From IMG/VR virus record IMGVR_UViG_2879731240_000003: a DNA stretch of 29,012 bases, one strand, 5' to 3'. The translations under genes were made by a program, and so were the position numbers. Shown here piece by piece: positions 3,621-28,164 of this stretch. The number at the start of each line of letters is the position of its first letter. Position 1 is the first letter of the stretch. The notes under the pieces are model-generated. The model was not told the origin of the DNA. It saw nothing but the letters and a program-made list of their open reading frames with translations, and ran no database searches. The stretch is from a virus (lineage: Duplodnaviria > Heunggongvirae > Uroviricota > Caudoviricetes).

Positions 3621-4190
3621 TCATTCCGGATGCTCCTGAGCCACGTTGAAATCGCCATGATCACGACAAGGCATCACAACAAATTCAGGATTGCCATACA
3701 TTGAGTTGATGATGGAATCAAACTGAATTCTGACCGCTTGCCCGTCACCGGAGGGACGTAACTGGACGGGAATAAATTTACGCTCACGACCAAACATCTT
3801 CTCTGGATAACTCAGGTAACCCGCCTGGAGCACCGGGTGAGTACAGCGGTCAAACTTTTTCGGAATGATGCGATCCAAATCCGGAAAACAACCGTCCACC
3901 AGTTTAATGCCGGTAATGGACAGTCGTCGCTGAAACTGGTCGCGATGAACAGCGATCGGCTCTTTACTAAAAATCAGCTCTGTCGTTTCGGCTTTGGCCG
4001 GGACGCCCCCTTCGAACTGGACAATGATGTTTTTCTTCGTCCGGATGCCGTGAGCCATGCGCAGTGCCACGGAACCATTGGTTGCCTCAATATGTTTCGG
4101 CGTGATGTGAAGACCGTTCAGGTAATAACGAACGTCGTTTTTAGCAGCGCACACCAGAGCGGCGCGAATAAGTTTTGACTGGATGATCAT
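3621..4190 (-). CDS. Truncated beta sliding clamp (DnaN)-like protein, 189 aa
   Basis: Motifs NDVRYYLNGLHI and KLVDGCFPDLDRIIPK resemble E. coli DnaN QDVRYYLNGMLF and KLVDGRFPDYRRVLPK; C-terminus ..EFVVMPCRD resembles DnaN ..AYVVMPMRL (remembered sequence). About half the length of a real clamp. Start ATG overlaps the upstream stop (ATGA). Confidence 0.6.
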   Translation of the reverse strand: MIIQSKLIRAALVCAAKNDVRYYLNGLHITPKHIEATNGSVALRMAHGIRTKKNIIVQFEGGVPAKAETTELIFSKEPIAVHRDQFQRRLSITGIKLVDGCFPDLDRIIPKKFDRCTHPVLQAGYLSYPEKMFGRERKFIPVQLRPSGDGQAVRIQFDSIINSMYGNPEFVVMPCRDHGDFNVAQEHPE

Positions 4191-4936
4191 GCTTTATCCT
4201 CCCATCCGATCACCTGGAAAAGCCCCATCTTCGGGTGATACCAGCGTGTGCCGCGTGGGTCAGCCTCTGACATCATTTGGTGGAACGCCGCCATAAATGG
4301 CTCAAGCTCGACGATAGCCCTGCGAGACAACAGACCGTCCGGAGTCATGAATTCGTGGGTGTCTGTAGGAATTTGATATGCGTTCACCAGATTCCGACAC
4401 TTGGTGTCACTCATTCCACTTTTGGCTACCACCTGGCGGTAACCGACATATCCGGCGCGCATATTTCCGCGTTTGATGGTTTCCACCGCTTCTGTGACTG
4501 TTTCGAGCTGTTCTTCCACATGATTCAGGCGCTTCTGTTGACGAACAGCGTCGGCGGCTATCGCAGCGATCATCTCGATTTCCGTTAGCGGTGTGCGAGT
4601 GCGGAAGTAGCTGTTAACCAGTTCGCGCTGAACCTGCCAGGCAAGGGCGTCATTGAATGGCTTCGTCAACATCAGGTAACCTGATTCAAAAAGTACAATC
4701 CCCGATGGTGCAAATTTAGAGAATGTTCCTTCCGGGAGGTCCGTACGTATTACGTCCGCACCTAATTCGGCATAATCCACACCGCTGATGAAATGCTCAC
4801 GGTTTCGGTTGAATGCTGCACGCGCGGTTCCTTCCGGTCGCTGGTGGACTTCATCAATCATCGCCAGCGTCACAACACGCTGACCGCGATATTCGATTAC
4901 CGGAAACTGTTTGTTGTTGATGGTTACAGTATTCAT
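4187..4936 (-). CDS. Phage antirepressor-like protein (Bro-N/ORF6N/KilA-N-type N-terminal domain, uncharacterised C-terminal domain)
   Basis: Likely start MNTVTINNKQFPVIEYRGQRVVTLAMIDEV.. at 4936 with GGAG ribosome-binding site; the N-terminal pattern resembles ORF6N/Bro-N antirepressor domains (from memory, moderate). Confidence 0.5.
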   Translation of the reverse strand: MNTVTINNKQFPVIEYRGQRVVTLAMIDEVHQRPEGTARAAFNRNREHFISGVDYAELGADVIRTDLPEGTFSKFAPSGIVLFESGYLMLTKPFNDALAWQVQRELVNSYFRTRTPLTEIEMIAAIAADAVRQQKRLNHVEEQLETVTEAVETIKRGNMRAGYVGYRQVVAKSGMSDTKCRNLVNAYQIPTDTHEFMTPDGLLSRRAIVELEPFMAAFHQMMSEADPRGTRWYHPKMGLFQVIGWEDKA

Positions 4937-4979
4937 TTTTATCTCCAGACAGCCCGGCGTGTAATACCGGGCATATGTA

Positions 4980-5807
4980 TTACTTAACCTGAATAAATGG
5001 TGTGTTGGCACCGCTGGTCATGTATTGCGGCAGTGTACCGTTCCACTTGTTGATGGCTTCCAGCTCCATAACGTTTGGGTTCTGGCGCAGAGCTTCACCG
5101 CGTAAACGAATAGCATCGGCTTCGGCCTGGGCTTTTGTGCGAATCGCATCTGCCTGTCCGGCAGCTTCCGCGCGCAACATGTTGGCTTCCGCTTCGCGCT
5201 GTTTTACTTCCTGCTCGCATTGCAGGGTTTTCTGGTTCGCCGTGACTTTGGCATTAATGCTGTCGATAACAGTAGGCGGGTACTCCGGCTTACCCACATA
5301 TGAGAGGCTCATTACCTGAATACCGATGGGCGTCATTTCTTCCTGAATGTCTTTAAGAGCTGCATCCAGCAGCTCAGACTTGCCGCCGTCGATAAATTTG
5401 TCGGTGGTCATTTTGCTGGCCAGTCGGTTGAGTGCGTCGGCTATCTTCTGGCGCAGGTCGGTGTCGGTAATGTCGTCCACGCCTTTGCGGTAGGTCTGAA
5501 AGACTGTGGTAACTTTGGATGGATCAACTTTGTAGGCCACGCCGATGTGATAGCCGATGGTTGTACCGTCACTCATCTGGAAGCTGAATGGCTCATCGTA
5601 GGTCTTCATTTGTTTGAAGGTCGGGAAGATGTAAACCTCAGTGTTCCATCCCGTCCAGTAGCGCCCAACACCGACCACTTCTCCGACGCCTTTATCGTCG
5701 CCCAGTTTGTTTACCTTGATGCCAACATTACCAGGCTCAACGCGATCGCAACCGACAAGTCCGGTGGTCAGCAGAACAAGGGCTAAAGCAGGAATAACTT
5801 TTTTCAT
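4980..5807 (-). CDS. SPFH/band-7 (prohibitin/HflC-like) domain lipoprotein
   Basis: N-terminal signal with lipobox (MKKVIPALALVLLTTGLVGC); SPFH core (..IGIQVMSLSYVGKPEYP..) followed by Ala/Glu-rich coiled region (QREAEANMLRAEAAGQADAIRTKAQAEADAIRLRGEA) typical of HflK/C and YqiK-like proteins. Confidence 0.8.
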   Translation of the reverse strand: MKKVIPALALVLLTTGLVGCDRVEPGNVGIKVNKLGDDKGVGEVVGVGRYWTGWNTEVYIFPTFKQMKTYDEPFSFQMSDGTTIGYHIGVAYKVDPSKVTTVFQTYRKGVDDITDTDLRQKIADALNRLASKMTTDKFIDGGKSELLDAALKDIQEEMTPIGIQVMSLSYVGKPEYPPTVIDSINAKVTANQKTLQCEQEVKQREAEANMLRAEAAGQADAIRTKAQAEADAIRLRGEALRQNPNVMELEAINKWNGTLPQYMTSGANTPFIQVK

Positions 5808-6304: not shown

Positions 6305-7123
6305 TTAAGCAGCCATCTGATGATATTTTTCCCTGAAGGCTGCCGGGGAGATATTCCCCAGACGAGAGTGACGACGCTGACGATTGTAGAAAATCTCAAT
6401 GTATTCCCGTATTACTGAGATGGCTTCATCCCGGTTATTAAAACGATAGTGGCTCAGGCTCTCATTTTTCAGCGTTCCCCAGAAGCTTTCCATCGGAGCG
6501 TTGTCGTAACAGTTACCTTTACGCGACATTGATGTTTTCAGACCAGACTGCTCCTGTATGACCCGGTAATCGTATGCGCAGTACTGTGAACCTCGATCAG
6601 AGTGGTGGATTAGCCCGGCAGGTGGGCGCTGGCTCCTGAGCGCCATAAACAGGGCTTTACCTGTCAGCTCTTTTGTCATGCGCTCTCCCATGGCGTAGCC
6701 GACAATTTCACACGTATAAACATCTTTGATGCCAGCGAGGTACAACCATCCCTCCTGTGTGGCAACATACGTCAGGTCCGCCACCCAGACCTGATTTGGT
6801 GCTGTAGGAGCGAACGTCTGGTTCAGCAGATTTGGCGCAACTGGCAGATTGTGGTTCGGGTTCGTAGTCGCTCTGAACTTGCGTTTCTGCTTACAGCGTA
6901 GCCTCAGCTCCTTACGAAGACGTGCCAGTCGGTCACGACCAACGATGATGCCATTCTCTGCCAGCTCCGTCTGGAGCCGCCGGGTTCCATATGTTTCGCG
7001 AGTGCGGATATGTGCCACCTTAATCTCCAGTTTTAGCCGCTCATCACTTTGTTTTCTGTCTGAGGGTTCATGCTGTACCCAGTTGTAATAACCGCTCCTG
7101 GATACACCAAATACCTGACACAT
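6305..7123 (-). CDS. IS600-like transposase OrfB (integrase core); made as an OrfAB fusion by -1 frameshift, so the true N-terminus lies upstream
   Basis: ..NQVWVADLTYVATQEGWLYLAGIKDVYT..HHSDRGSQYCAYDY..KGNCYDNAPMESFWGTLKNE.. (IS3-family DDE signature). Confidence 0.85.
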   Translation of the reverse strand: MCQVFGVSRSGYYNWVQHEPSDRKQSDERLKLEIKVAHIRTRETYGTRRLQTELAENGIIVGRDRLARLRKELRLRCKQKRKFRATTNPNHNLPVAPNLLNQTFAPTAPNQVWVADLTYVATQEGWLYLAGIKDVYTCEIVGYAMGERMTKELTGKALFMALRSQRPPAGLIHHSDRGSQYCAYDYRVIQEQSGLKTSMSRKGNCYDNAPMESFWGTLKNESLSHYRFNNRDEAISVIREYIEIFYNRQRRHSRLGNISPAAFREKYHQMAA

Positions 7124-7158
7124 CGCTTCAATGGGAAATTGTTGTCGCCATTGTTCGA

Positions 7159-7461
7159 TTAACGCGTATTTTTCAGCGACTCCTGTGCAAAATACGCTGT
7201 TGCTTTTTTTAATATATCTCGCTCAAGGCGAGCTTCATTTAACGCCTTACGCAGTTGCAGAATTTCAGATTCCAGTTCAGCCACCGTGCGGGAACCAGGA
7301 GTACCGAGCCCTTTTCTGGCGGCGGTAACCCATTGTCCTAAAGTGCCTTCAGGAAGAGATAATCGGGAAGCGCCTTCACTGATCGAAAGTTGATTTTCAA
7401 GAACCGTTCTGACAGCTTCGGCTTTGAACTCTTTAGAGTAACGTTGGGTTTTTCTGCTCAT
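7159..7461 (-). CDS. IS600-like transposase OrfA (helix-turn-helix / leucine zipper)
   Basis: MSRKTQRYSKEFKAEAVRTVLENQLSISEGASRLSLPEGTLGQWV..LESEILQLRKALNEARLERDILKKATAYFA; slippery AAAAAAG near its 3' end. Confidence 0.85.
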   Translation of the reverse strand: MSRKTQRYSKEFKAEAVRTVLENQLSISEGASRLSLPEGTLGQWVTAARKGLGTPGSRTVAELESEILQLRKALNEARLERDILKKATAYFAQESLKNTR

Positions 7462-7665: not shown

Positions 7666-8024
7666 TGCGCCATGAGTTTATTTTACCTTATCCGCCGACG
7701 GTGAATACTTACTGGCGACGTCGTGGCAGCACATATTTTGTATCAAAAGCCGGTGAGCGTTATCGCCGGGATGTGGCGCTTATTGTCCGTCAGCAGCGAC
7801 TGAAATTAAGCCTGTCCGGAAGACTGGCGATAAAGATTATTGCAGAGCCACCGGATAAGCGGCGTCGTGACCTGGACAATATCCTGAAAGCACCACTGGA
7901 TGCACTGACACATGCGGGGTTGCTTATCGACGACGAGCAGTTTGATGAAACCAATATTGTGCGCGGACTGCCTGTTCCTGGTGGTCGGTTGGGGATAAAA
8001 ATCACAGAGCTGGAGTGTGCATGA
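7665..8024 (+). CDS. rusA: Holliday junction resolvase RusA (lambdoid nin-region endonuclease)
   Basis: 119 aa; LPYPPTVNTYWRRRG..KRRRDLDNILKAPLDALTHAGLLIDDEQ..GGRLGIKITEL matches the RusA family pattern. Confidence 0.9.
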   Translation: MRHEFILPYPPTVNTYWRRRGSTYFVSKAGERYRRDVALIVRQQRLKLSLSGRLAIKIIAEPPDKRRRDLDNILKAPLDALTHAGLLIDDEQFDETNIVRGLPVPGGRLGIKITELECA

Positions 8025-8710
8025 ATAACCAGTATTTACAGTTTGTTCGTGAGCAGCTCATTATCGCCACCGCTGATTTGAGTGGGGCGACAAAAGGTCA
8101 GCTTGAAGCCTGGCAGGAGAATGCCATGTTCGATACAGGGCGTTACAGGCGTAAAAAAATCCGGTACCGCGATGAGGTGACCGGAAAAATGATAACGCGG
8201 GATAATCCACCAATCCCGGGAAAACAATCACTGGCGAAGGGGGCGTCAATTCCTCTGGTCAGTCAGGTTGCGTTTTCGACATCATCGTGGCGGCGGGCTG
8301 TTCTGTCTCTTGAAGAGCACTATAAAGCCTGGTTGTTGTGGTGTTACAGCGGAAGTATTTGCTGGGAGTATCAGATCACCATAACCCACTGGGCGTGGGA
8401 AGAGTTTAAGGCTCATTCTGGCACTAGGAAAATTGCAGAGAAAACACAGGAACGCCTGAAAAAATTAATCTGGCTGGCGGCGCAGGCGGTAAAAGCAGAA
8501 CTTTTTGGTGGGGAAGGTTATGAATATCAGGAGCTGGCATTACTGGCGGGAGTAACAACCAAAAACTGGTCCAAAACATTTACTGGTCACTGGGTTGTAA
8601 TGAAACACATTTTTCACCGACTGGATAGTGAGGCTTTATTGTTTGTGATGAGAACACGTTCAGAACAAAAAGCGGCATTTTCAAAGCAAAGTATTGCAAA
8701 AGTAGATTAA
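8021..8710 (+). CDS. Hypothetical protein in the position of the late-gene antiterminator Q (assignment positional only)
   Basis: 229 aa from ATG 8021 (overlaps rusA stop, ATGA); sits between rusA and a terminator-like hairpin plus tRNA cluster, as Q does in lambdoid phages. I do not recognise the sequence itself. Confidence 0.35.
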   Translation: MNNQYLQFVREQLIIATADLSGATKGQLEAWQENAMFDTGRYRRKKIRYRDEVTGKMITRDNPPIPGKQSLAKGASIPLVSQVAFSTSSWRRAVLSLEEHYKAWLLWCYSGSICWEYQITITHWAWEEFKAHSGTRKIAEKTQERLKKLIWLAAQAVKAELFGGEGYEYQELALLAGVTTKNWSKTFTGHWVVMKHIFHRLDSEALLFVMRTRSEQKAAFSKQSIAKVD

Positions 8711-8776
8711 AAGGCATATATCTCATGCAAATCTGATACTTTGCCGATTTTGTACGCGATGGTAAAGTAAGCAAAA

Positions 8777-8798
8777 CCCGCCGCCGAGCGGTTTTTTT
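8777..8798 (+). terminator. Candidate intrinsic terminator downstream of the Q-position gene (tR'-like position)
   Basis: Short GC hairpin CCGCCGCCGAGCGG followed by T7 (..GCGGTTTTTTTAT). The stem is short, so this is tentative. Confidence 0.4.
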
Positions 8799-8886
8799 AT
8801 GCCTGAAAAATGGCACAGGACGTTAAACGTGCTGGTGGTCAGATGAGTTTGCAGATGTGATGACATATGGTTATTATTCTGCCTCC

Positions 8887-20036: not shown

Positions 20037-23000
20037 ATGGGTAAAGGCAGCAGTAAGGGGCATACCCCGCGCGAAGCGAAGGACAACCTGAAATCCACGC
20101 AGTTGCTGAGTGTGATTGATGCCATCAGCGAAGGGCCGGTTGACGGTCCGGTGGATGGATTAAAAAGCGTGCTGCTGAACGGTACGCCGGTCCTGGATAG
20201 CGAGGGGAAGACAAACTTTTCCGGTGTTACGGTGGTGTTCCGCGCCGGCGAGCAGGAGCAGACACCGCCGGAGGGGTTTGAATCTTCCGGCTCAGAGACT
20301 GTGCTGGGTACGGAAGTGAAATACGACACGCCGATCACCCGGACCATCACGTCGGCAAACATTGATCGTCTGCGCCTGACCTTCGGTGTGCAGGCACTGG
20401 TGGAAACCACCTCAAAGGGGGACCGGAATCCGTCGGAAGTCCGCCTGCTGGTTCAGATACAGCGTAACGGTGGCTGGGTGACGGAAAAAGACATCACCAT
20501 TAAGGGCAAAACCACTTCGCAGTATCTGGCCTCGGTGGTGGTGGGTAACCTGCCGCCGCGCCCGTTTAATATCCGGATGCGCAGGATGACACCGGACAGC
20601 ACCACAGACCAGCTGCAGAACAAAACGCTCTGGTCGTCGTACACCGAAATCATCGATGTGAAACAGTGCTACCCGAACACGGCGCTGGTCGGCGTGCAGG
20701 TGGATTCAGAGCAGTTCGGTAACCAGCAGGTGAGTCGCAATTATCATCTTCGCGGGCGCATTCTGCAGGTGCCGTCGAACTATAACCCGCAGACGCGGCA
20801 ATACAGCGGTATCTGGGACGGAACGCTTAAGCCAGCATACAGCAACAACATGGCCTGGTGTCTGTGGGACATGCTCACTCATCCGCGCTACGGCATGGGG
20901 AAACGTCTTGGTGCGGCAGATGTGGACAAATGGGCGCTGTATGTCATCGGCCAGTACTGCGACCAGTCAGTGCCGGACGGATTTGGCGGCACGGAGCCGC
21001 GCATCACCTGTAACGCTTACCTGACCACACAGCGTAAGGCGTGGGATGTTCTCAGTGATTTCTGCTCGGCGATGCGCTGTATGCCGGTATGGAACGGGCA
21101 GACGCTGACGTTCGTGCAGGACCGACCGTCGGATAAAGTGTGGACCTATAACCGCAGTAATGTGGTGATGCCGGATGATGGCGCGCCGTTCCGCTACAGC
21201 TTCAGCGCCCTGAAGGACCGCCATAATGTCGTTGAGGTGAACTGGATTGATCCGGACAACGGTCATGAGACGGCGACAGAGCTTGTGGAGGACACGCAGG
21301 CCATTGTCCGTTACGGTCGTAACGTCACGAAGATGGATGCCTTTGGCTGTACCAGCCGGGGACAGGCGCACCGCGCCGGGCTGTGGCTGATTAAAACGGA
21401 ACTGCTGGAAACGCAGACCGTGGACTTCAGCGTCGGCGCAGAAGGGCTTCGCCATGTACCGGGTGATGTCATTGAAATCTGCGATGATGATTATGCCGGT
21501 ATCAGCACCGGTGGTCGCGTACTGGCGGTGAACAGCCAGACCCGGACGCTGACGCTCGACCGTGAAATCACGCTGCCGTCCTCCGGTACCACGCTGATAA
21601 GCCTGGTTGACGGAAATGGCAATCCGGTCAGCGTGGAGGTTCAGTCCGTCACCGACGGCGTGAAGGTGAAAGTGAGCCGGGTTCCTGACGGCGTTGCAGA
21701 ATACAGCGTGTGGGGGCTGAAGCTGCCGACGCTGCGCCAGCGCCTGTTCCGCTGCGTGAGTATCCGTGAGAACGACGACGGCACGTATGCCATCACCGCC
21801 GTGCAGCATGTGCCGGAAAAAGAGGCCATCGTGGATAACGGGGCACACTTTGACGGTGACCGGCGCGGCACGGTGAATGGTGTCACGCCGCCAGCGGTGC
21901 AGCATCTGACCGCCGAAGTCACCGCAGACAGCGGGGAATATCAGGTGCTGGCGCGATGGGACACGCCGAAGGTGGTGAAGGGTGTGAGCTTCCTGCTTCG
22001 CCTGACCGTGGCAGCGGACGACGGCAGTGAGCGGCTGGTCAGCACAGCCAGGACGACGGAAACCACATACCGCTTCAGGCAGCTGGCGCTGGGGAATTAC
22101 AGTCTGACAGTCCGGGCGGTAAATGCCCGGGGGCAGCAGGGCGATCCGGCGTCGGTATCGTTCCGGATTGCGGCACCGGCAGCGCCTGTCACTATTGAAC
22201 TGATACCGGGGTATTTTCAGATAACGGTGGTCCCGAAACTGGCTGTATATGACCCGACGGTGCAGTTTGAGTTCTGGTTTTCGGAAAAGCGGATTGCGGA
22301 TATCAGGCAGGTTGAAACCAGCGCCCGCTATCTTGGCACGGCGCTGTACTGGATAGCCGCCAGTATCAATATCAGGCCGGGCCATGATTATTATTTTTAC
22401 GTTCGCAGTGTGAACACCGTTGGCAAATCGGCATTTGTGGAGGCCGTCGGTCGGGCGAGCGATGATGCGGAAGGTTATCTGAGTTTTTATAAAGGGTTGA
22501 TCAATAAAACGCATCTCGGCAAGGAGTTGTGGACGCAGATTGATAACGGTCAGCTTGCGCCGGACCTGACTGAAATCAGGACGTCCATTACGAATGTCAG
22601 CAATGAAATCACGCAAACCGTCAATAAAAAACTGGAAAATCAGAGTGCTGCAATCCAGCAGATACAGAAAGTTCAGGTTGATACAAATAATAACCTGAAC
22701 AGCATGTGGGCTGTGAAGCTGCAACAGATGAAGGACGGACGCCTTTATATTGCGGGTATCGGTGCCGGTATTGAGAATACGCCAGCAGGAATGCAGAGTC
22801 AGGTGCTGCTGGCGGCAGACAGGATTGCGATGATTAATCCTGCGAATGGCAACACAAAGCCGATGTTTGTTGGTCAGGGCGATCAGATATTCATGAACGA
22901 CGTGTTCCTGAAACGCCTGACGGCTCCGACCATTACCAGCGGCGGTAATCCTCCGGCATTTTCCCTGACACCTGGCGGACGGCTGACGGCGAAAAATGCC

Positions 23001-23516
23001 GATATCAGCGGTAACGTGAACGCGAACTCCGGGACGCTCAACAACGTCACGATTAATAAGAACTGTCGGGTTCTGGGAAAATTGTCCGCGAACCAGATTG
23101 AAGGCGATCTCGTTAAAACAGTGGGCAAACCTTTCCCACGGGACTCCCGGGCACCGGAGAGGTGGCCATCAGGGACCATTACCGTCAGGGTTTATGACGA
23201 TCAGCCGTTTGATCGGCAAATTGTTATTCCCGCGGTGGCGTTTCGCGGTGCTAAACATGAGCGGAAGAATAACAATATTTATTCGTCATGCCGCCTGATA
23301 GTGAAGAAAAACGGTGCTGAAATTTATAACCGAACGACCCTGGATAATACGCTGATATATACGGGTGTTATTGATATGCCTGCCGGTCACGGTCACATGA
23401 CGCTGGAGTTTTCTGTATCGGCATGGCTGGTAAATGGCTGGTATCCCACAGCAAGTATCAGCGATTTGCTGGTTGTTGTGATGAAGAAATCCACAGCAGG
23501 TATCAGTATCAGCTGA
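20037..23516 (+). CDS. Lambda J-like tail tip / central fibre host-specificity protein (1159 aa)
   Basis: N-terminal 800+ residues closely match lambda gpJ from memory ([34 protein letters not shown]..); C-terminal region diverges. Confidence 0.9.
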
Positions 23517-23583: not shown

Positions 23584-24183
23584 ATGCGTAAACTTTATGC
23601 TGCCATTTTGTCCGCAGCCATCTGTCTGGCTGTATCCGGTGCGCCTGCATGGGCGTCTGAACATCAGTCCACGCTGAGCGCGGGGTATCTTCATGCCTCG
23701 ACGAACGCTCCCGGCAGTGATGATCTGAACGGGATTAACGTGAAATACCGTTATGAGTTTACGGACACGCTGGGGCTGGTGACGTCATTCAGCTATGCCA
23801 ACGCTGAAGATGAGCAAAAAACGCATTACAGTGATACCCGCTGGCATGAGGATTCCGTGCGTAACCGCTGGTTCAGCGTGATGGCGGGGCTGTCTGTGCG
23901 CGTGAATGAATGGTTCAGCGCGTATGCGATGGCGGGCGTGGCTTACAGCCGTGTGTCGACCTTCTCCGGGGATTATCTCCGCGTAACTGACAACAAGGGG
24001 AAAACGCACGATGTGCTGACCGGGAGTGATGACAACCGCCACAGCAACACGTCTCTGGCGTGGGGGGCTGGCGTGCAGTTTAACCCGACCGAATCCGTGG
24101 CCATTGACCTTGCTTATGAAGGTTCCGGCAGTGGCGACTGGCGCACTGACGGTTTCATCGTGGGTGTCGGTTATAAGTTCTGA
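23584..24183 (+). CDS. lom: Lom/Ail-family outer-membrane beta-barrel protein
   Basis: Signal peptide ([24 protein letters not shown]), about 199 aa, C-terminal ..GVGYKF; position immediately after J as in lambda. Confidence 0.85.
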
Positions 24184-24210
24184 TTAGCCAGGTAACACAG
24201 TGTTATGACA

Positions 24211-24235
24211 GCCCGCTGGTTCAGGCGGGCTTTTT
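24211..24235 (+). terminator. Intrinsic terminator after lom
   Basis: GCCCGC-TGGTTCAG-GCGGGC followed by TTTTT. Confidence 0.6.
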
Positions 24236-24246
24236 GTGGGGTGAAT

Positions 24247-25308
24247 ATGGCAGTAAAGATTTCAGGTGTACTGAAAGATGGGGCGGGTAAACCTGTCGTA
24301 AATTGTGCGATTGAACTGCGGGCCAGAAGAACCAGTCCGACCGTTGTGGCACACGTTGTTGCCACTTGCGTGACGGACAATAACGGTGCTTATGTGATTG
24401 AGGCTGAGCCGGGGTATTACGAGGTTGCGCTTCACTGTAACGGCTGGCAGCCAACCCGTGTCGGGGATATTGATGTGGCACCGACTGATGCACCGGGGAC
24501 ACTGAACGCGTTTCTGAATGCACCAAAGGATGGTGATTTACGTCCGGAGGTGATGAAGCGCTTTGAGGAAATGGTGGCGCAGGCGCAGCAGAGTGCCGGG
24601 GCTGCAGCCGGAAACGCACAGCAGACGGCGCAGGATGTGGCGGCAGCCGCAACGGCCCGTGATGATGCACAACGTTTTGCGGAGAAAGCCCGACAGGATG
24701 CAACCGTCACAGCTGAGGACAGAAAGGCCACTGCGGAAGATGTGACAAGCACAGGAGCAAATGCAGCCGCAGCCGGACAGAGCGCACAGGATGCCGCAGG
24801 TTATGCCCGCGCAGCAGAACAGGCCAAAAATGACATTGATGCTGCGCTGACCGGCACTCTGAAAATGGCTAACCATCTGTCAGAAATCGCAGCAGCAGGC
24901 GAAAAGGCACAACAGAAGTCCCGGGATAATCTGGGGCTGAAAAGTGCGGCCACGATGGAAGCACAGAGCGACATTTACGACCGGACAAAAGGCCGTCTGG
25001 CGATACCCGGCGCATTCGGCTTTGGGTGTGCTTTTCTGCCTGAAGATGTTATCCGTTTTGACACTAAGAGTGATTTCCTGGCCTGGGTAAGGAATGCGCT
25101 GCCAGGTGAATATTCCGTTGCTGGCCCCTACGGCATCATCATACCCGACACACGGTTTGAAGGGGTGCTCAGCATCCGGTGGACTGATGCACGCCCTGAG
25201 ACAACAGAACCGCGGTACAGAGCCAAATCCCTTACTTTTTACGGCATTAACGGCCCCATTTATCACACCCGCTACCGCTACTGGCCCATATCCAGACTGA
25301 CTGGGTGA
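24247..25308 (+). CDS. Side tail fibre (Stf)-like protein, short form (353 aa) with divergent C-terminal domain
   Basis: N-terminus MAVKISGVLKDGAGKPV.NC.IEL.ARR matches the lambda Stf N-terminal anchor; Ala-rich central region; unrelated C-terminus. Confidence 0.7.
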   Translation: MAVKISGVLKDGAGKPVVNCAIELRARRTSPTVVAHVVATCVTDNNGAYVIEAEPGYYEVALHCNGWQPTRVGDIDVAPTDAPGTLNAFLNAPKDGDLRPEVMKRFEEMVAQAQQSAGAAAGNAQQTAQDVAAAATARDDAQRFAEKARQDATVTAEDRKATAEDVTSTGANAAAAGQSAQDAAGYARAAEQAKNDIDAALTGTLKMANHLSEIAAAGEKAQQKSRDNLGLKSAATMEAQSDIYDRTKGRLAIPGAFGFGCAFLPEDVIRFDTKSDFLAWVRNALPGEYSVAGPYGIIIPDTRFEGVLSIRWTDARPETTEPRYRAKSLTFYGINGPIYHTRYRYWPISRLTG

Positions 25309-25658
25309 AAATAAATATAACCACAGAAGATATTATTTACAGAATCGTGGCGAGCTCTGTCCGCAACAGATGGGGAGACCCTGACATTGGCGGGCTGATT
25401 ATTGCTGCGTACCAGGGAGAAGCTGACGGTGATAAAGTCATCAGACTTGTCAGGGGGCAGTCATACAGAGGCTCACGACTGGGACCGGTGGGGATTTCAG
25501 TGCCCGGTACTCCCACCGGAACGTATATAGCATCCCCACAATTTTTCATTACGGGATGTTCAGAGCATTCATTACCAGGGTCATATTGCGCCCTGTCCGG
25601 GGTGCCGGATGCTCATGTCTCTGGCGCAATGCCCGGGCTTTTTATTCGCACATCGTGA
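25305..25658 (+). CDS. Hypothetical protein (117 aa), GTG start overlapping the stf-like stop (GTGA)
   Basis: ORF-track ORF; no family recognised; position suggests a fibre-associated or chaperone function. Confidence 0.35.
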   Translation: MKINITTEDIIYRIVASSVRNRWGDPDIGGLIIAAYQGEADGDKVIRLVRGQSYRGSRLGPVGISVPGTPTGTYIASPQFFITGCSEHSLPGSYCALSGVPDAHVSGAMPGLFIRTS

Positions 25659-25668
25659 GGAATGCACC

Positions 25669-26233
25669 GTGGAAATTAAAAAAATCATTAATCCCCGTTA
25701 TACCGAAAGTGGCGCAGTAGACTGTGACGTTTTTTTTTGACGACAGGGACCAGGCAGTTCCCTACACAGCCACCGCTGATGATGTTGCACCGACGGGTCA
25801 GCAAATCTGGCAGGAACTGCAAAGTGGCAAATGGGGTGAGATAGCCCCATTCACTGTGACACCAGAAATGCTGGAAGCGGCCAGAGAGGCCAGACGTCAG
25901 GAAATTGAAGCATGGCGCACAGAACAGGAGGCGAAGCCGTTCACGTTTGAATGGAACGGCCGCACGTGGAACGCTGACGCCTCGTCAGTGGCCCGCCTGT
26001 CCCCGGTGGTCATGCTGGCAAAATCTGTCGCGGCACAAACACATATGGTGTGGAGTGATGCGGATAATCAGCAGGTGAAACTGTCGATGCCGGAACTGGA
26101 AGAACTGGCGGCAGCAATGGTGCAGGCGCAGGTCGATCGCAACGATGAGATTTATCGCCGTCAGCGGGAGATGAAAGAGGAGCTGAGCAGTCTGGATGAT
26201 TTGGCTTCAATTCGGGCGTTTGACGTTAAGTAA
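25669..26233 (+). pseudogene. Tail fibre assembly/chaperone-like gene (DUF4376-like C-terminus) interrupted by a frameshift at a T9 tract
   Basis: GTG 25669 behind GAGGAA opens a 23-codon frame that stops at 25738..25740; the 169-aa body (25724..26233) is in the +1 frame. C-terminal pattern W.DADN..V.LS..EL..LA.AM resembles DUF4376 tail-fibre chaperones (from memory). Confidence 0.5.
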
Positions 26234-26348
26234 TGAATAAGCCGCAACTGGCGGAATCACAGAAGACCGCTTTGCTTACCGAAGCGGAGTCTGTCATCCG
26301 GCAGCCGGGGCGTGCTGTCAGGCTGAACAGGGAAACGGATGAATCAGG

Positions 26349-26376
26349 GGAGGCCCGGGGGCGGGCCTCCGTTTTT
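26349..26376 (+). terminator. Strong intrinsic terminator between the convergent tail-fibre genes and ipaH
   Basis: Perfect 9-bp stem GGAGGCCCG / CGGGCCTCC with GGGG loop followed by GTTTTT. Confidence 0.7.
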
Positions 26377-26412
26377 CCGGAGTCAGTCCGGTCTGTGGTT
26401 TATGCGATGTGA

Positions 26413-28164
26413 TTATGAATGGTGCAGTTGTGAGCCGTTTTCAGGCAATCGCAGGGCCAGTACCTCGTCAGTCAGCTGACGGTAAATCTGCTGTTCAGTC
26501 TCACGCATCACCTGTGCACCGGCTTCCCTCTCCGCATCCGCATCACCGCTCAGACCTGATGCTTTCAGCCGGTCAGCCACCCTCTGAGGGTACTCATTCT
26601 CCAGCATCTCATATTTCTGCTCTTCTGCCTGCGCCCAGCGGTCAGCTTCCGTACGCTTCAGTACAGCATGCCATGGTCCCCAGAGGGAGAACCAGTCCGT
26701 AAATTCATTCTCTTCACGGCTTCTGACCATGGCTTCGGCAGTGCGGAGGTCATTTGCTGTCACTCCCGACACGCCATAGAAACGCATTTCCTTCACGGCA
26801 GTGGAGAGCTGAAGTTTCTCTGCGAGCATGGTCTGGAAGGCCAGGTAGACTTCTATCTCATCCACAAAATGGAGAGTTCTGACTTTATCCCGGGCAATAT
26901 CCTCCAGAATTTCGAGGCGGAACATTTCCCTGCCCAGGGAGAGCAGAGCGCCGGTATCATTATCGAAAAGGCCTTCTGATGCCTGATGGACCAGGAGGGT
27001 TTTCCGGAGATTGTTCCATGTGAGCGCGACACGGTCCTCACAGCTCTCAGTGGCATCAGCAGCAACAGCGAAAGACTGCTGTCGAAGCTCCGCAGAGGCA
27101 CTGAGTTTTTCCAGCCATGCAGCGACCTGTTCACGGAATCCGGAGGTATTGCGTGCAGAGACGGTATCGGAAAGGCGGTCAAGGAACGCGGAAAAGGTGT
27201 TGGCGTGCTCTTCATGTTCAAAAGCATGCCATATCTGTGATACATCAGATTGTTTGTTTTCCGGGAACCATGCTGTCACGGCATCAGCCAGGGGGCGATG
27301 GAGTGTATTCTGTTGTCCGTCACTCATGGAGAAGTAAATCTGCGGGCCGTGGTAGTCCGGCGAAGATGTTAATCTTTGCAGGGATTGCAGAGCATGGGAT
27401 GACAATGGGTTATCACTAATATCTATTGAACATTCATTCCTCAGATTAAGAATGCTTTCCGGGATATGACTTATCTGATTTATGTCAAAATAACCGTTCC
27501 TTAAATTTTCCGGCAGGTATGGAATATCGGTTAACATATTGTCGATTGCCCATATGGAGTGAATGTTGTGAGGTAGAGGGGGGAGTTCACTAAGAAGATT
27601 CCCTATTGCGCTAATCTCTTGTAAAGAAAATGGTAAAGGTGGTAAAACTGCCAGCCCATTACATGATACATCTAATGTTTCCAGTAGTTCTGGTAAAACA
27701 GGAAGAGAACATAATTGATTATTTGAGACATGAAGCTCCTTCAAAGATATGGGGAGTGTGGGTAGTGTGATTAGTTGATTGTGGGACGCATTCAATAATT
27801 TAAGTCCTTGAGGCAAAGCAGGCAGTTCAATAAGTCTGTTATAGCTGACATTAAGTTGTGTAAGGGACGCAGGCAATGGGGAGATTAAGCTTAAATTATT
27901 TTTACTTATATTAATTGATTTAATTCCCGGGGGGATTTCAGGTAATGTTGTCAGGCCTAATTCAGACAAGTCCAGGTTCGTCTCTTGGTTTTGTAGACAT
28001 GATACTAGTCGCTGAAAAGCGATGTCTCGTTGTTCTTCTTGTATGCGGTTATTTTTCCATTCAGTCCAATGGGTTAGATAATTTTCATATGCGCGGCTAG
28101 TGTCGATTGAATAAGTGGAGAACGAATTTGAAATTAATCTGTGATTGTTATTTGTCGGGAGCAT
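26413..28164 (-). CDS. ipaH: IpaH-family type III secreted effector: N-terminal leucine-rich repeats plus C-terminal NEL-type E3 ubiquitin ligase domain
   Basis: 583 aa; N-terminus MLPTNNN..; about nine 20-residue LRRs (L..LP.LP..L..L.VS.N.L); C-terminal domain with the catalytic CEDR motif (..ADATESCEDRVALTWNNLRK..) matching Shigella IpaH proteins from memory. Confidence 0.95.
   Translation of the reverse strand: MLPTNNNHRLISNSFSTYSIDTSRAYENYLTHWTEWKNNRIQEEQRDIAFQRLVSCLQNQETNLDLSELGLTTLPEIPPGIKSINISKNNLSLISPLPASLTQLNVSYNRLIELPALPQGLKLLNASHNQLITLPTLPISLKELHVSNNQLCSLPVLPELLETLDVSCNGLAVLPPLPFSLQEISAIGNLLSELPPLPHNIHSIWAIDNMLTDIPYLPENLRNGYFDINQISHIPESILNLRNECSIDISDNPLSSHALQSLQRLTSSPDYHGPQIYFSMSDGQQNTLHRPLADAVTAWFPENKQSDVSQIWHAFEHEEHANTFSAFLDRLSDTVSARNTSGFREQVAAWLEKLSASAELRQQSFAVAADATESCEDRVALTWNNLRKTLLVHQASEGLFDNDTGALLSLGREMFRLEILEDIARDKVRTLHFVDEIEVYLAFQTMLAEKLQLSTAVKEMRFYGVSGVTANDLRTAEAMVRSREENEFTDWFSLWGPWHAVLKRTEADRWAQAEEQKYEMLENEYPQRVADRLKASGLSGDADAEREAGAQVMRETEQQIYRQLTDEVLALRLPENGSQLHHS
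27414..27996 (-). repeat. Tandem degenerate roughly 60-bp repeats encoding the IpaH leucine-rich repeats
   Basis: Periodic LRR units in the translation and a visibly AT-rich periodic DNA segment. Confidence 0.6.

Follow-up and report, generated by a model that had tools for sequence, protein, structure and literature searches.

Two adjacent reading frames in a decayed Shigella flexneri prophage are very probably one side tail fibre gene split by a four-base deletion

The side tail fibre protein Stf of phage lambda is 774 amino acids long, and lambda Tfa is a Caudo_TAP-type protein. In Ur-lambda, the N-terminal domain of Stf (StfN) acts as a collar that docks the fibre onto the junction of tail tube and tail tip. 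While stf is intact in Ur-lambda, a frameshift in laboratory lambda (lambda PaPa) makes two consecutive ORFs out of the gene and abolishes the side fibres (PMC12617516). A new type of intermolecular fibre chaperone has been described in the Alteromonas phages V22 and A5, where DUF4376 proteins are encoded directly after fibre genes (PMC7289586, PMC10579305). The same gene pair occurs intact in two further sequenced phage genomes. In the Stx2e phage phiP27 the L56 fibre (490 aa) is directly followed by the DUF4376 gene L57, and in Avunavirus 18-1-2 a 416-aa fibre is directly followed by the DUF4376 gene peg.82.

Here we analysed a stretch of 29,012 nucleotides, referred to as the window, from a viral record of the Caudoviricetes. 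The window is the late or tail end of a lambdoid prophage, a decayed prophage of S. flexneri, and holds two ORFs at the stf position. With high confidence, we interpret these two ORFs as one lambda-type side tail fibre gene that became a pseudogene through a four-base deletion. The feature is ordinary and of an already-known kind, that is, a further example of the fate of stf in laboratory lambda. It differs in that the deletion lies in a tetranucleotide repeat and in a chromosomal defective prophage, not in a laboratory phage stock. A literature search on this specific Shigella locus gave nothing directly relevant. The features discussed below are:

24210-24231, plus strand: terminator-like hairpin 3' of lom, AGCCCGCTGGTTCAGGCGGGCT followed by TTTT
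24247-25308, plus strand: stf 5' fragment (ORF1), 353 codons and a premature TGA (25306-25308); StfN anchor domain (residues 1-131), Ala/Gln-rich helical shaft and proximal tip half
25296-25303, plus strand: lesion site, (ACTG)x2; relatives have (ACTG)x3 (loci L001 and L003) or ACTGACTGGCTG (L002)
25305-25658, plus strand: stf 3' fragment (ORF2), 117 codons in the -1 frame, distal tip module
25669-26233, plus strand: DUF4376 tail-fibre chaperone gene, 187 codons when intact, frameshifted in the window
25730-25738, plus strand: T9 homopolymer in the chaperone gene, T8 in relatives
26349-26370, plus strand: GC-rich terminator-like hairpin that closes the tail operon and faces the ipaH 3' end
26413-28164, minus strand: ipaH-family T3SS effector E3 ubiquitin ligase, 583 aa, with Pfam domains LRR_TTSS and NEL

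The gene occupies the same position as lambda stf, after J (20037-23516) and lom (23584-24183), and begins at 24247 at the end of the tail operon. Gene callers commonly start it at ATG 24205 and report 367 aa. The true start is ATG 24247, because the 24205 call reads through the lom terminator hairpin. Read from 24247, ORF1 begins with MAVKISGVLKDG, the same as lambda Stf. A sequence-only reading of the window had proposed a short stf-like gene and a subsequent 117-aa ORF in the -1 frame with a GTGA overlap, and both coordinates and frames were confirmed. The GTG of ORF2 overlaps the TGA of ORF1 as GTGA (GGGTGAAAA), and the start positions (24247 mod 3 = 1; 25305 mod 3 = 0) place ORF2 in the -1 frame.

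That ORF1 carries an Stf anchor and an Ala-rich shaft, as also proposed, is borne out by several searches. Residues 1-131 match the Pfam family PF08400 ('Prophage tail fibre N-terminal', E 1.1e-48), and in a profile search the StfN of ORF1 matched the solved N-terminal domain of Ur-lambda Stf (9e7m, residues 1-93, E 2e-32). Comparison of an AF2 full-length model with 9e7m gave a Foldseek TM of 0.79 (normalised to target) at 53% identity. The anchor is thus homologous to that of laboratory lambda and Ur-lambda, and a helical shaft rich in Ala and Gln comes after it. For the C-terminal part of ORF1, the Pfam search returned no match and no fibre repeat of the lambda Stf type (PF03406). The profile search against solved structures found the N-terminal domain only (9e7m and 7kjk) and nothing significant for the tip, and Foldseek with the full-length AF2 model again gave the N-terminal domain as sole match. 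Structure models of the tip were of moderate confidence (pLDDT 66-69).

The lambda Stf or T4 gp37 type of C-terminus with Tfa does not describe this locus: fibre-repeat matches are absent, and the downstream gene belongs to DUF4376 only, whereas lambda has Tfa at this place. The proposal that the C-terminus is unrelated to that of lambda therefore holds, and the tip belongs to phrog_2636, a family of tail fibres defined by a PF08400 anchor and a two-part tip with a length of about 420-570 aa. The protein had also been regarded as unusually short. It is truncated here, but the shortness as such is native to this fibre family, since intact relatives comprise about 470 aa compared with the 774 aa of lambda. 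ORF2 matches the final 112 positions of phrog_2636 (profile 456-567, E 7.5e-45) and, because of this match, is not a chance ORF.

We then compared the junction between the two ORFs with that of relatives. It reads CCAG ACTG ACTG GGTG in the window, versus CCAG ACTG ACTG ACTG GGTG or CCAG ACTG ACTG GCTG GGTG in relatives. This 4-base gap is the only frame-breaking difference in the fibre alignment with E. coli relatives. The codons CTG ACT GRC TGG of the L-T-G/D-W motif form a tandem tetranucleotide repeat, of which the window is one unit short. Loss of one unit yields the window sequence from either ancestor, ACTG being removed from the triple repeat or CTGG from CTGGCTGG. At the protein level, ...SRLT(D/G)WVKINITT... 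turns into ...SRLTG-stop, and the frame expected of a lambda-type Stf is interrupted by the TGA at 25306-25308. What looks like a GTG start codon of ORF2 originally encoded the Val of W-V-K; the GTGA 'coupling' is thus a by-product of the deletion. Re-insertion of ACTG gave a 471-aa protein that spans the junction in one phrog_2636 alignment (residues 180-470 to profile 270-567, E 1.9e-217), and only after this repair did a single match run continuously through the proximal and distal tip.

The gene is fused in its relatives. A megablast search of the region against a phage collection gave no close relative, only 50-122-base matches in N-terminal regions, and the informative relatives came from the E. 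coli genome collection. Ten complete chromosomes had a place covering at least 80% of window positions 24205-26240: coverage is full in nine of them, with 96.5-98.8% identity, and amounts to 83% in the tenth, with 93.3% identity. In all ten, a tail-fibre CDS and a DUF4376 CDS are the only ones under the match, and all three E. coli loci inspected have a single fibre CDS of 470 aa, the ends of which correspond to window positions 24247 and 25658. Intact orthologues of 470 aa (for example WP_197939858.1, WP_046880233.1 and WP_151334812.1) reside in ipaH-carrying E. coli prophages with the neighbours J, lom, fibre, DUF4376 and ipaH, at 96.7-98.8% DNA identity over fibre and chaperone genes. They differ from the window by the (ACTG)x3 or ACTGACTGGCTG repeat, by T8, by both genes being intact and by GRLGII instead of GPYGIII at 25127-25136. 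The sequence-only reading had suggested aligning the tail fibres of related prophages, and had named a frameshift-split fibre as in laboratory lambda among its options. The alignment yields just this picture: one fused 470-aa CDS in near-identical E. coli prophages (97-99% DNA identity), with a difference of one 4-base repeat unit.

More distant relatives gave analogous results. In a search of 5.8 billion proteins, we found intact relatives in S. sonnei, S. dysenteriae, S. boydii and E. coli (80-99% identity), eight fibres of 468-534 aa from E. coli, Salmonella and metagenomes (46-52% identity), and two longer intact fibres of 574 and 580 aa. All these homologues run continuously across the junction, with a conserved L-(T/I)-G-W or L-T-G/D-W motif in which W354 is nearly invariant. 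The phiP27 and Avunavirus 18-1-2 fibres likewise hold both tip halves in one protein (34-57% identity, tblastn), with DUF4376 genes of 188-189 aa. Their shafts differ from that of the window, and the Avunavirus fibre has a different N-terminal anchor without a PF08400 match. Close and distant relatives are thus fused, and the indel that sets the split copy apart has a length not divisible by three, as in a frameshift-split pseudogene. Judged from these alignments, the fused form is ancestral.

The ancestral gene encodes about 470 residues, with StfN, an Ala/Gln-rich shaft and a two-part tip, in which the proximal half is joined at the conserved L-T-G/D-W to a distal module of some 117 residues; the DUF4376 chaperone gene follows immediately. 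One ACTG unit was presumably lost by replication slippage. Translation now ends at the lesion (R-L-T-G-stop), and the 117 distal codons persist as an open frame in -1. The 353-residue product would keep anchor and shaft and is probably non-functional. Since the distal tip is missing, we infer that it cannot form a receptor-binding fibre; the truncated tip presumably can neither fold nor bind. Low-level re-initiation at the GTGA may still give a free 117-aa polypeptide.

The gene directly downstream is also frameshifted. Its product has PF14301 (DUF4376, E 2.4e-17) as sole Pfam match, and the repaired protein (residues 1-187) aligns end to end with phrog_1141 (profile 4-190). Domain, size of about 190 aa and position after the fibre gene fit the DUF4376 group, whereas the frame is broken by the T9 run. 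A chaperone role is predicted on the basis of the Alteromonas phage work (PMC7289586, PMC10579305). As in V22 (gp26/gp27) and A5, the DUF4376 protein is encoded directly after the fibre gene; this likeness concerns the chaperone domain family alone, with the fibre sequences outside the comparison. A GAGGA Shine-Dalgarno sequence (25657-25661) lies seven bases upstream of GTG 25669. Annotations of intact relatives begin this gene at an ATG that precedes the stf stop (207 aa, 50-nt overlap with stf); GTG 25669 with its GAGGA appears to fit the family profile better. The extra T splits the gene into parts of 23 aa (25669-25740) and 169 aa (25724-26233), which gene callers report as ORFs of 41/43 aa and 169 aa. 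The run is T8 in the three E. coli relatives; of the ten S. flexneri loci described below, nine have T8 and one (L010, CP026788.1) T9. We regard T9 as probably real, since the exact 169-aa product was found on 44 contigs from more than one submitter, although this is less certain than for the stf deletion.

Decay of the prophage extends further. Downstream of the Q antiterminator (8015-8710) comes an IS110-family transposase on the minus strand (9896-11092), and the next gene is already FI (11356), so that lysis, terminase, portal and capsid genes are missing (window 8015-11757) and there is no room for them between Q and FI. Pieces of IS3-family elements and a group II intron reverse transcriptase, located upstream, add to the signs of decay. 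Tail genes Z to J appear intact, and thus the region is not uniformly degraded. With this gene content, the prophage is evidently unable to build virions. Given the chaperone frameshift and the missing genes, the stf lesion would represent neutral decay, the cryptic prophage being retained because it carries lom and ipaH.

How widespread is the lesion? Using the exact 367-aa product, we retrieved ten S. flexneri loci from seven assemblies (L004-L013), which are 99.7-99.9% identical to the window. All ten have (ACTG)x2, in both prophage copies. Three complete S. flexneri chromosomes hold two J-lom-stf-DUF4376-ipaH modules each (loci include CP026765.1, CP034931.1 and CP026788.1). The neighbours of one copy are those seen in the window, a 583-aa IpaH and DinI, while the other copy adjoins a 587-aa IpaH, a PBP-family gene and an aminotransferase. 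Since both copies carry the same stf frameshift, the lesion either predates the duplication or spread by gene conversion.

In addition, locus L014 (CP026839.1, 3958-3995) has the same 4-base deletion on another allelic background, characterized by GRLGII, a Cys codon at 25276 and Ser at 25506; its shaft is shorter, and its chaperone gene has T7. The deletion in L014 arose either through repeated slippage or through a short conversion tract, and together with T7 it indicates that both repeats are mutable sites and that decay of the cassette took several forms. The second background could be explained by recurrence at a hot spot, or by something other than pure drift. One could therefore think of the L-T-G/D-W repeat as a slippage hot spot that acts as a crude on/off switch for the fibre, or of the two fragments as co-expressed via re-initiation at the GTGA and reassembling non-covalently. 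The deletion on two backgrounds (window and L014) and the variation of the T-run between T7, T8 and T9 would allow these ideas, yet we consider them very improbable.

A rival reading is a native two-gene organization, in which a short fibre with a receptor-binding tip would be coupled to a 117-aa partner, be it an adaptor, a tip subunit or a chaperone. Stop and start codons that overlap as GTGA are a classic sign of translational coupling, and the layout is common to all ten S. flexneri loci examined. The sequence-only reading had held that related prophages with the same two-ORF layout would indicate native organization. The S. flexneri loci do share the layout, but being 99.7-99.9% identical copies of one inherited lesion, they are not independent evidence for it, and the gene is fused in every other lineage checked. 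Furthermore, there is no Shine-Dalgarno sequence before GTG 25305, and the chaperone role is already taken by the downstream DUF4376 gene. A word-indexed homologue search with ORF2 alone had returned six mostly partial entries, and we used exhaustive phmmer instead. Among 1.84 billion representatives, it gave 61 matches, of which 55 lie in proteins of 200-1481 aa, nearly all at the extreme C-terminus. Among the six shorter ones (<200 aa) are fragments from contig ends and pieces attached directly to a shaft. ORF2 homologues thus typically sit within longer fibre proteins, which speaks against a separate coupled gene, and a diverged relative with a separate partner gene was found neither in the alignments nor in annotated phage records nor in the representative search. 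The notion of a modular tip with its own small partner accordingly had to be given up, and we regard the two-gene organization as very improbable.

What survives of that notion is the modularity. The distal 117-residue module (window 25302-25658) is an exchangeable unit, which would also suit a separate gene, and recombines independently of the proximal half among intact homologues (P0073, P0098, P0110 and P0114), but always within one polypeptide in the intact relatives examined. P0073 and P0114 share 87% identity in the proximal and 34% in the distal part, while P0073 and P0110 share 61% and 87%, respectively. Since P0073 and P0114 are nearly identical up to L-T-G-W-E and diverge immediately after it, the frameshift cuts at a true module boundary. 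This boundary could serve the engineering of fibre tips together with their DUF4376 chaperone.

Equally little credence can be given to the idea that the cell continues to produce a fused fibre, be it through programmed -1 ribosomal frameshifting or because an ACTG unit is reversibly gained and lost. ORF2 does lie in the -1 frame, and 25251-25304 (54 nt) is open in both frames. However, this overlap contains no slippery heptamer of the X XXY YYZ type and relatives use a single frame, which argues against programmed -1 frameshifting of the G/GT type. Phase variation could draw on the position of the lesion within a tandem tetranucleotide repeat, on the two allelic backgrounds of the deletion and on the neighbouring T-run (T7, T8, T9). 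But only 2-3 repeat units are present here, and known tetranucleotide contingency loci have far more. In the ten S. flexneri loci x2 is fixed, none of them having reverted to x3, and the prophage is in any case unable to make virions.

That the 4-base gap and the extra T are sequencing or assembly errors in the record is hardly conceivable: indels in repeats and homopolymers are typical of long-read errors and T9 is limited to the window and one of the ten other S. flexneri loci, but the stf deletion is identical across seven assemblies and in both copies per genome, its exact products occur on 111 (367 aa) and 311 (117 aa) contigs from several sources (including, by source names, S. flexneri 2a strain 301 and strain 2457T), which together with the ten loci excludes sequencing error for stf, and the T9-derived 169-aa product has its 44 contigs.

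A split fibre gene with a split chaperone gene is thus our preferred reading, and it has consequences for annotation. Shigella entries of a 353/367-aa 'tail component' and a 117-aa 'phage tail protein' should be annotated as one frameshifted pseudogene, and the 41/169-aa pair as a frameshifted DUF4376 chaperone gene.

Besides the lesion, the fibre gene shows allelic variation. A mosaic patch at 25127-25136 has a 3-base insertion compared to the E. coli relatives (GPYGIIIPD in the window versus GRLGIIPD), and both versions were found in intact proteins (P0005 and P0042 versus P0001 and P0002). The shaft (24544-24900) varies by in-frame deletions (compared to P0002, P0005 and P0047), with alleles of 374, 421, 428, 467 and 470 aa that are otherwise near-identical and stem from Shigella and E. 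coli. This pattern is consistent with recombination between internal repeats.

Further mobile elements and cargo were observed in the window. A group II intron reverse transcriptase/maturase ORF (832-2355) adjoins a truncated IS3-family integrase fragment (2508-2924), and a complete IS3-family orfA/orfB pair lies on the minus strand (6305-7461). The early region encodes, also on the minus strand, an SPFH/Band-7 protein (4980-5807) and an ORF6N-domain protein (4187-5011), possibly accessory or defence-type cargo. Some S. flexneri assemblies call a 59-aa ORF at 26233-26412, which is probably not a gene, since it overlaps the hairpin at 26349-26370 and has no family match on record. The ipaH gene, the product of which is named IpaH2 or IpaHd by its sources, lies convergent to the tail operon; it is downstream cargo and does not belong to the fibre itself. 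Over the ipaH 5' half and upstream of it (27400-28400), GC content falls to 37-38%, compared with 52-60% in the fibre cassette, a drop in line with cargo located where a tail operon ends. ipaH is followed by a DinI-like ORF (28764-29012).
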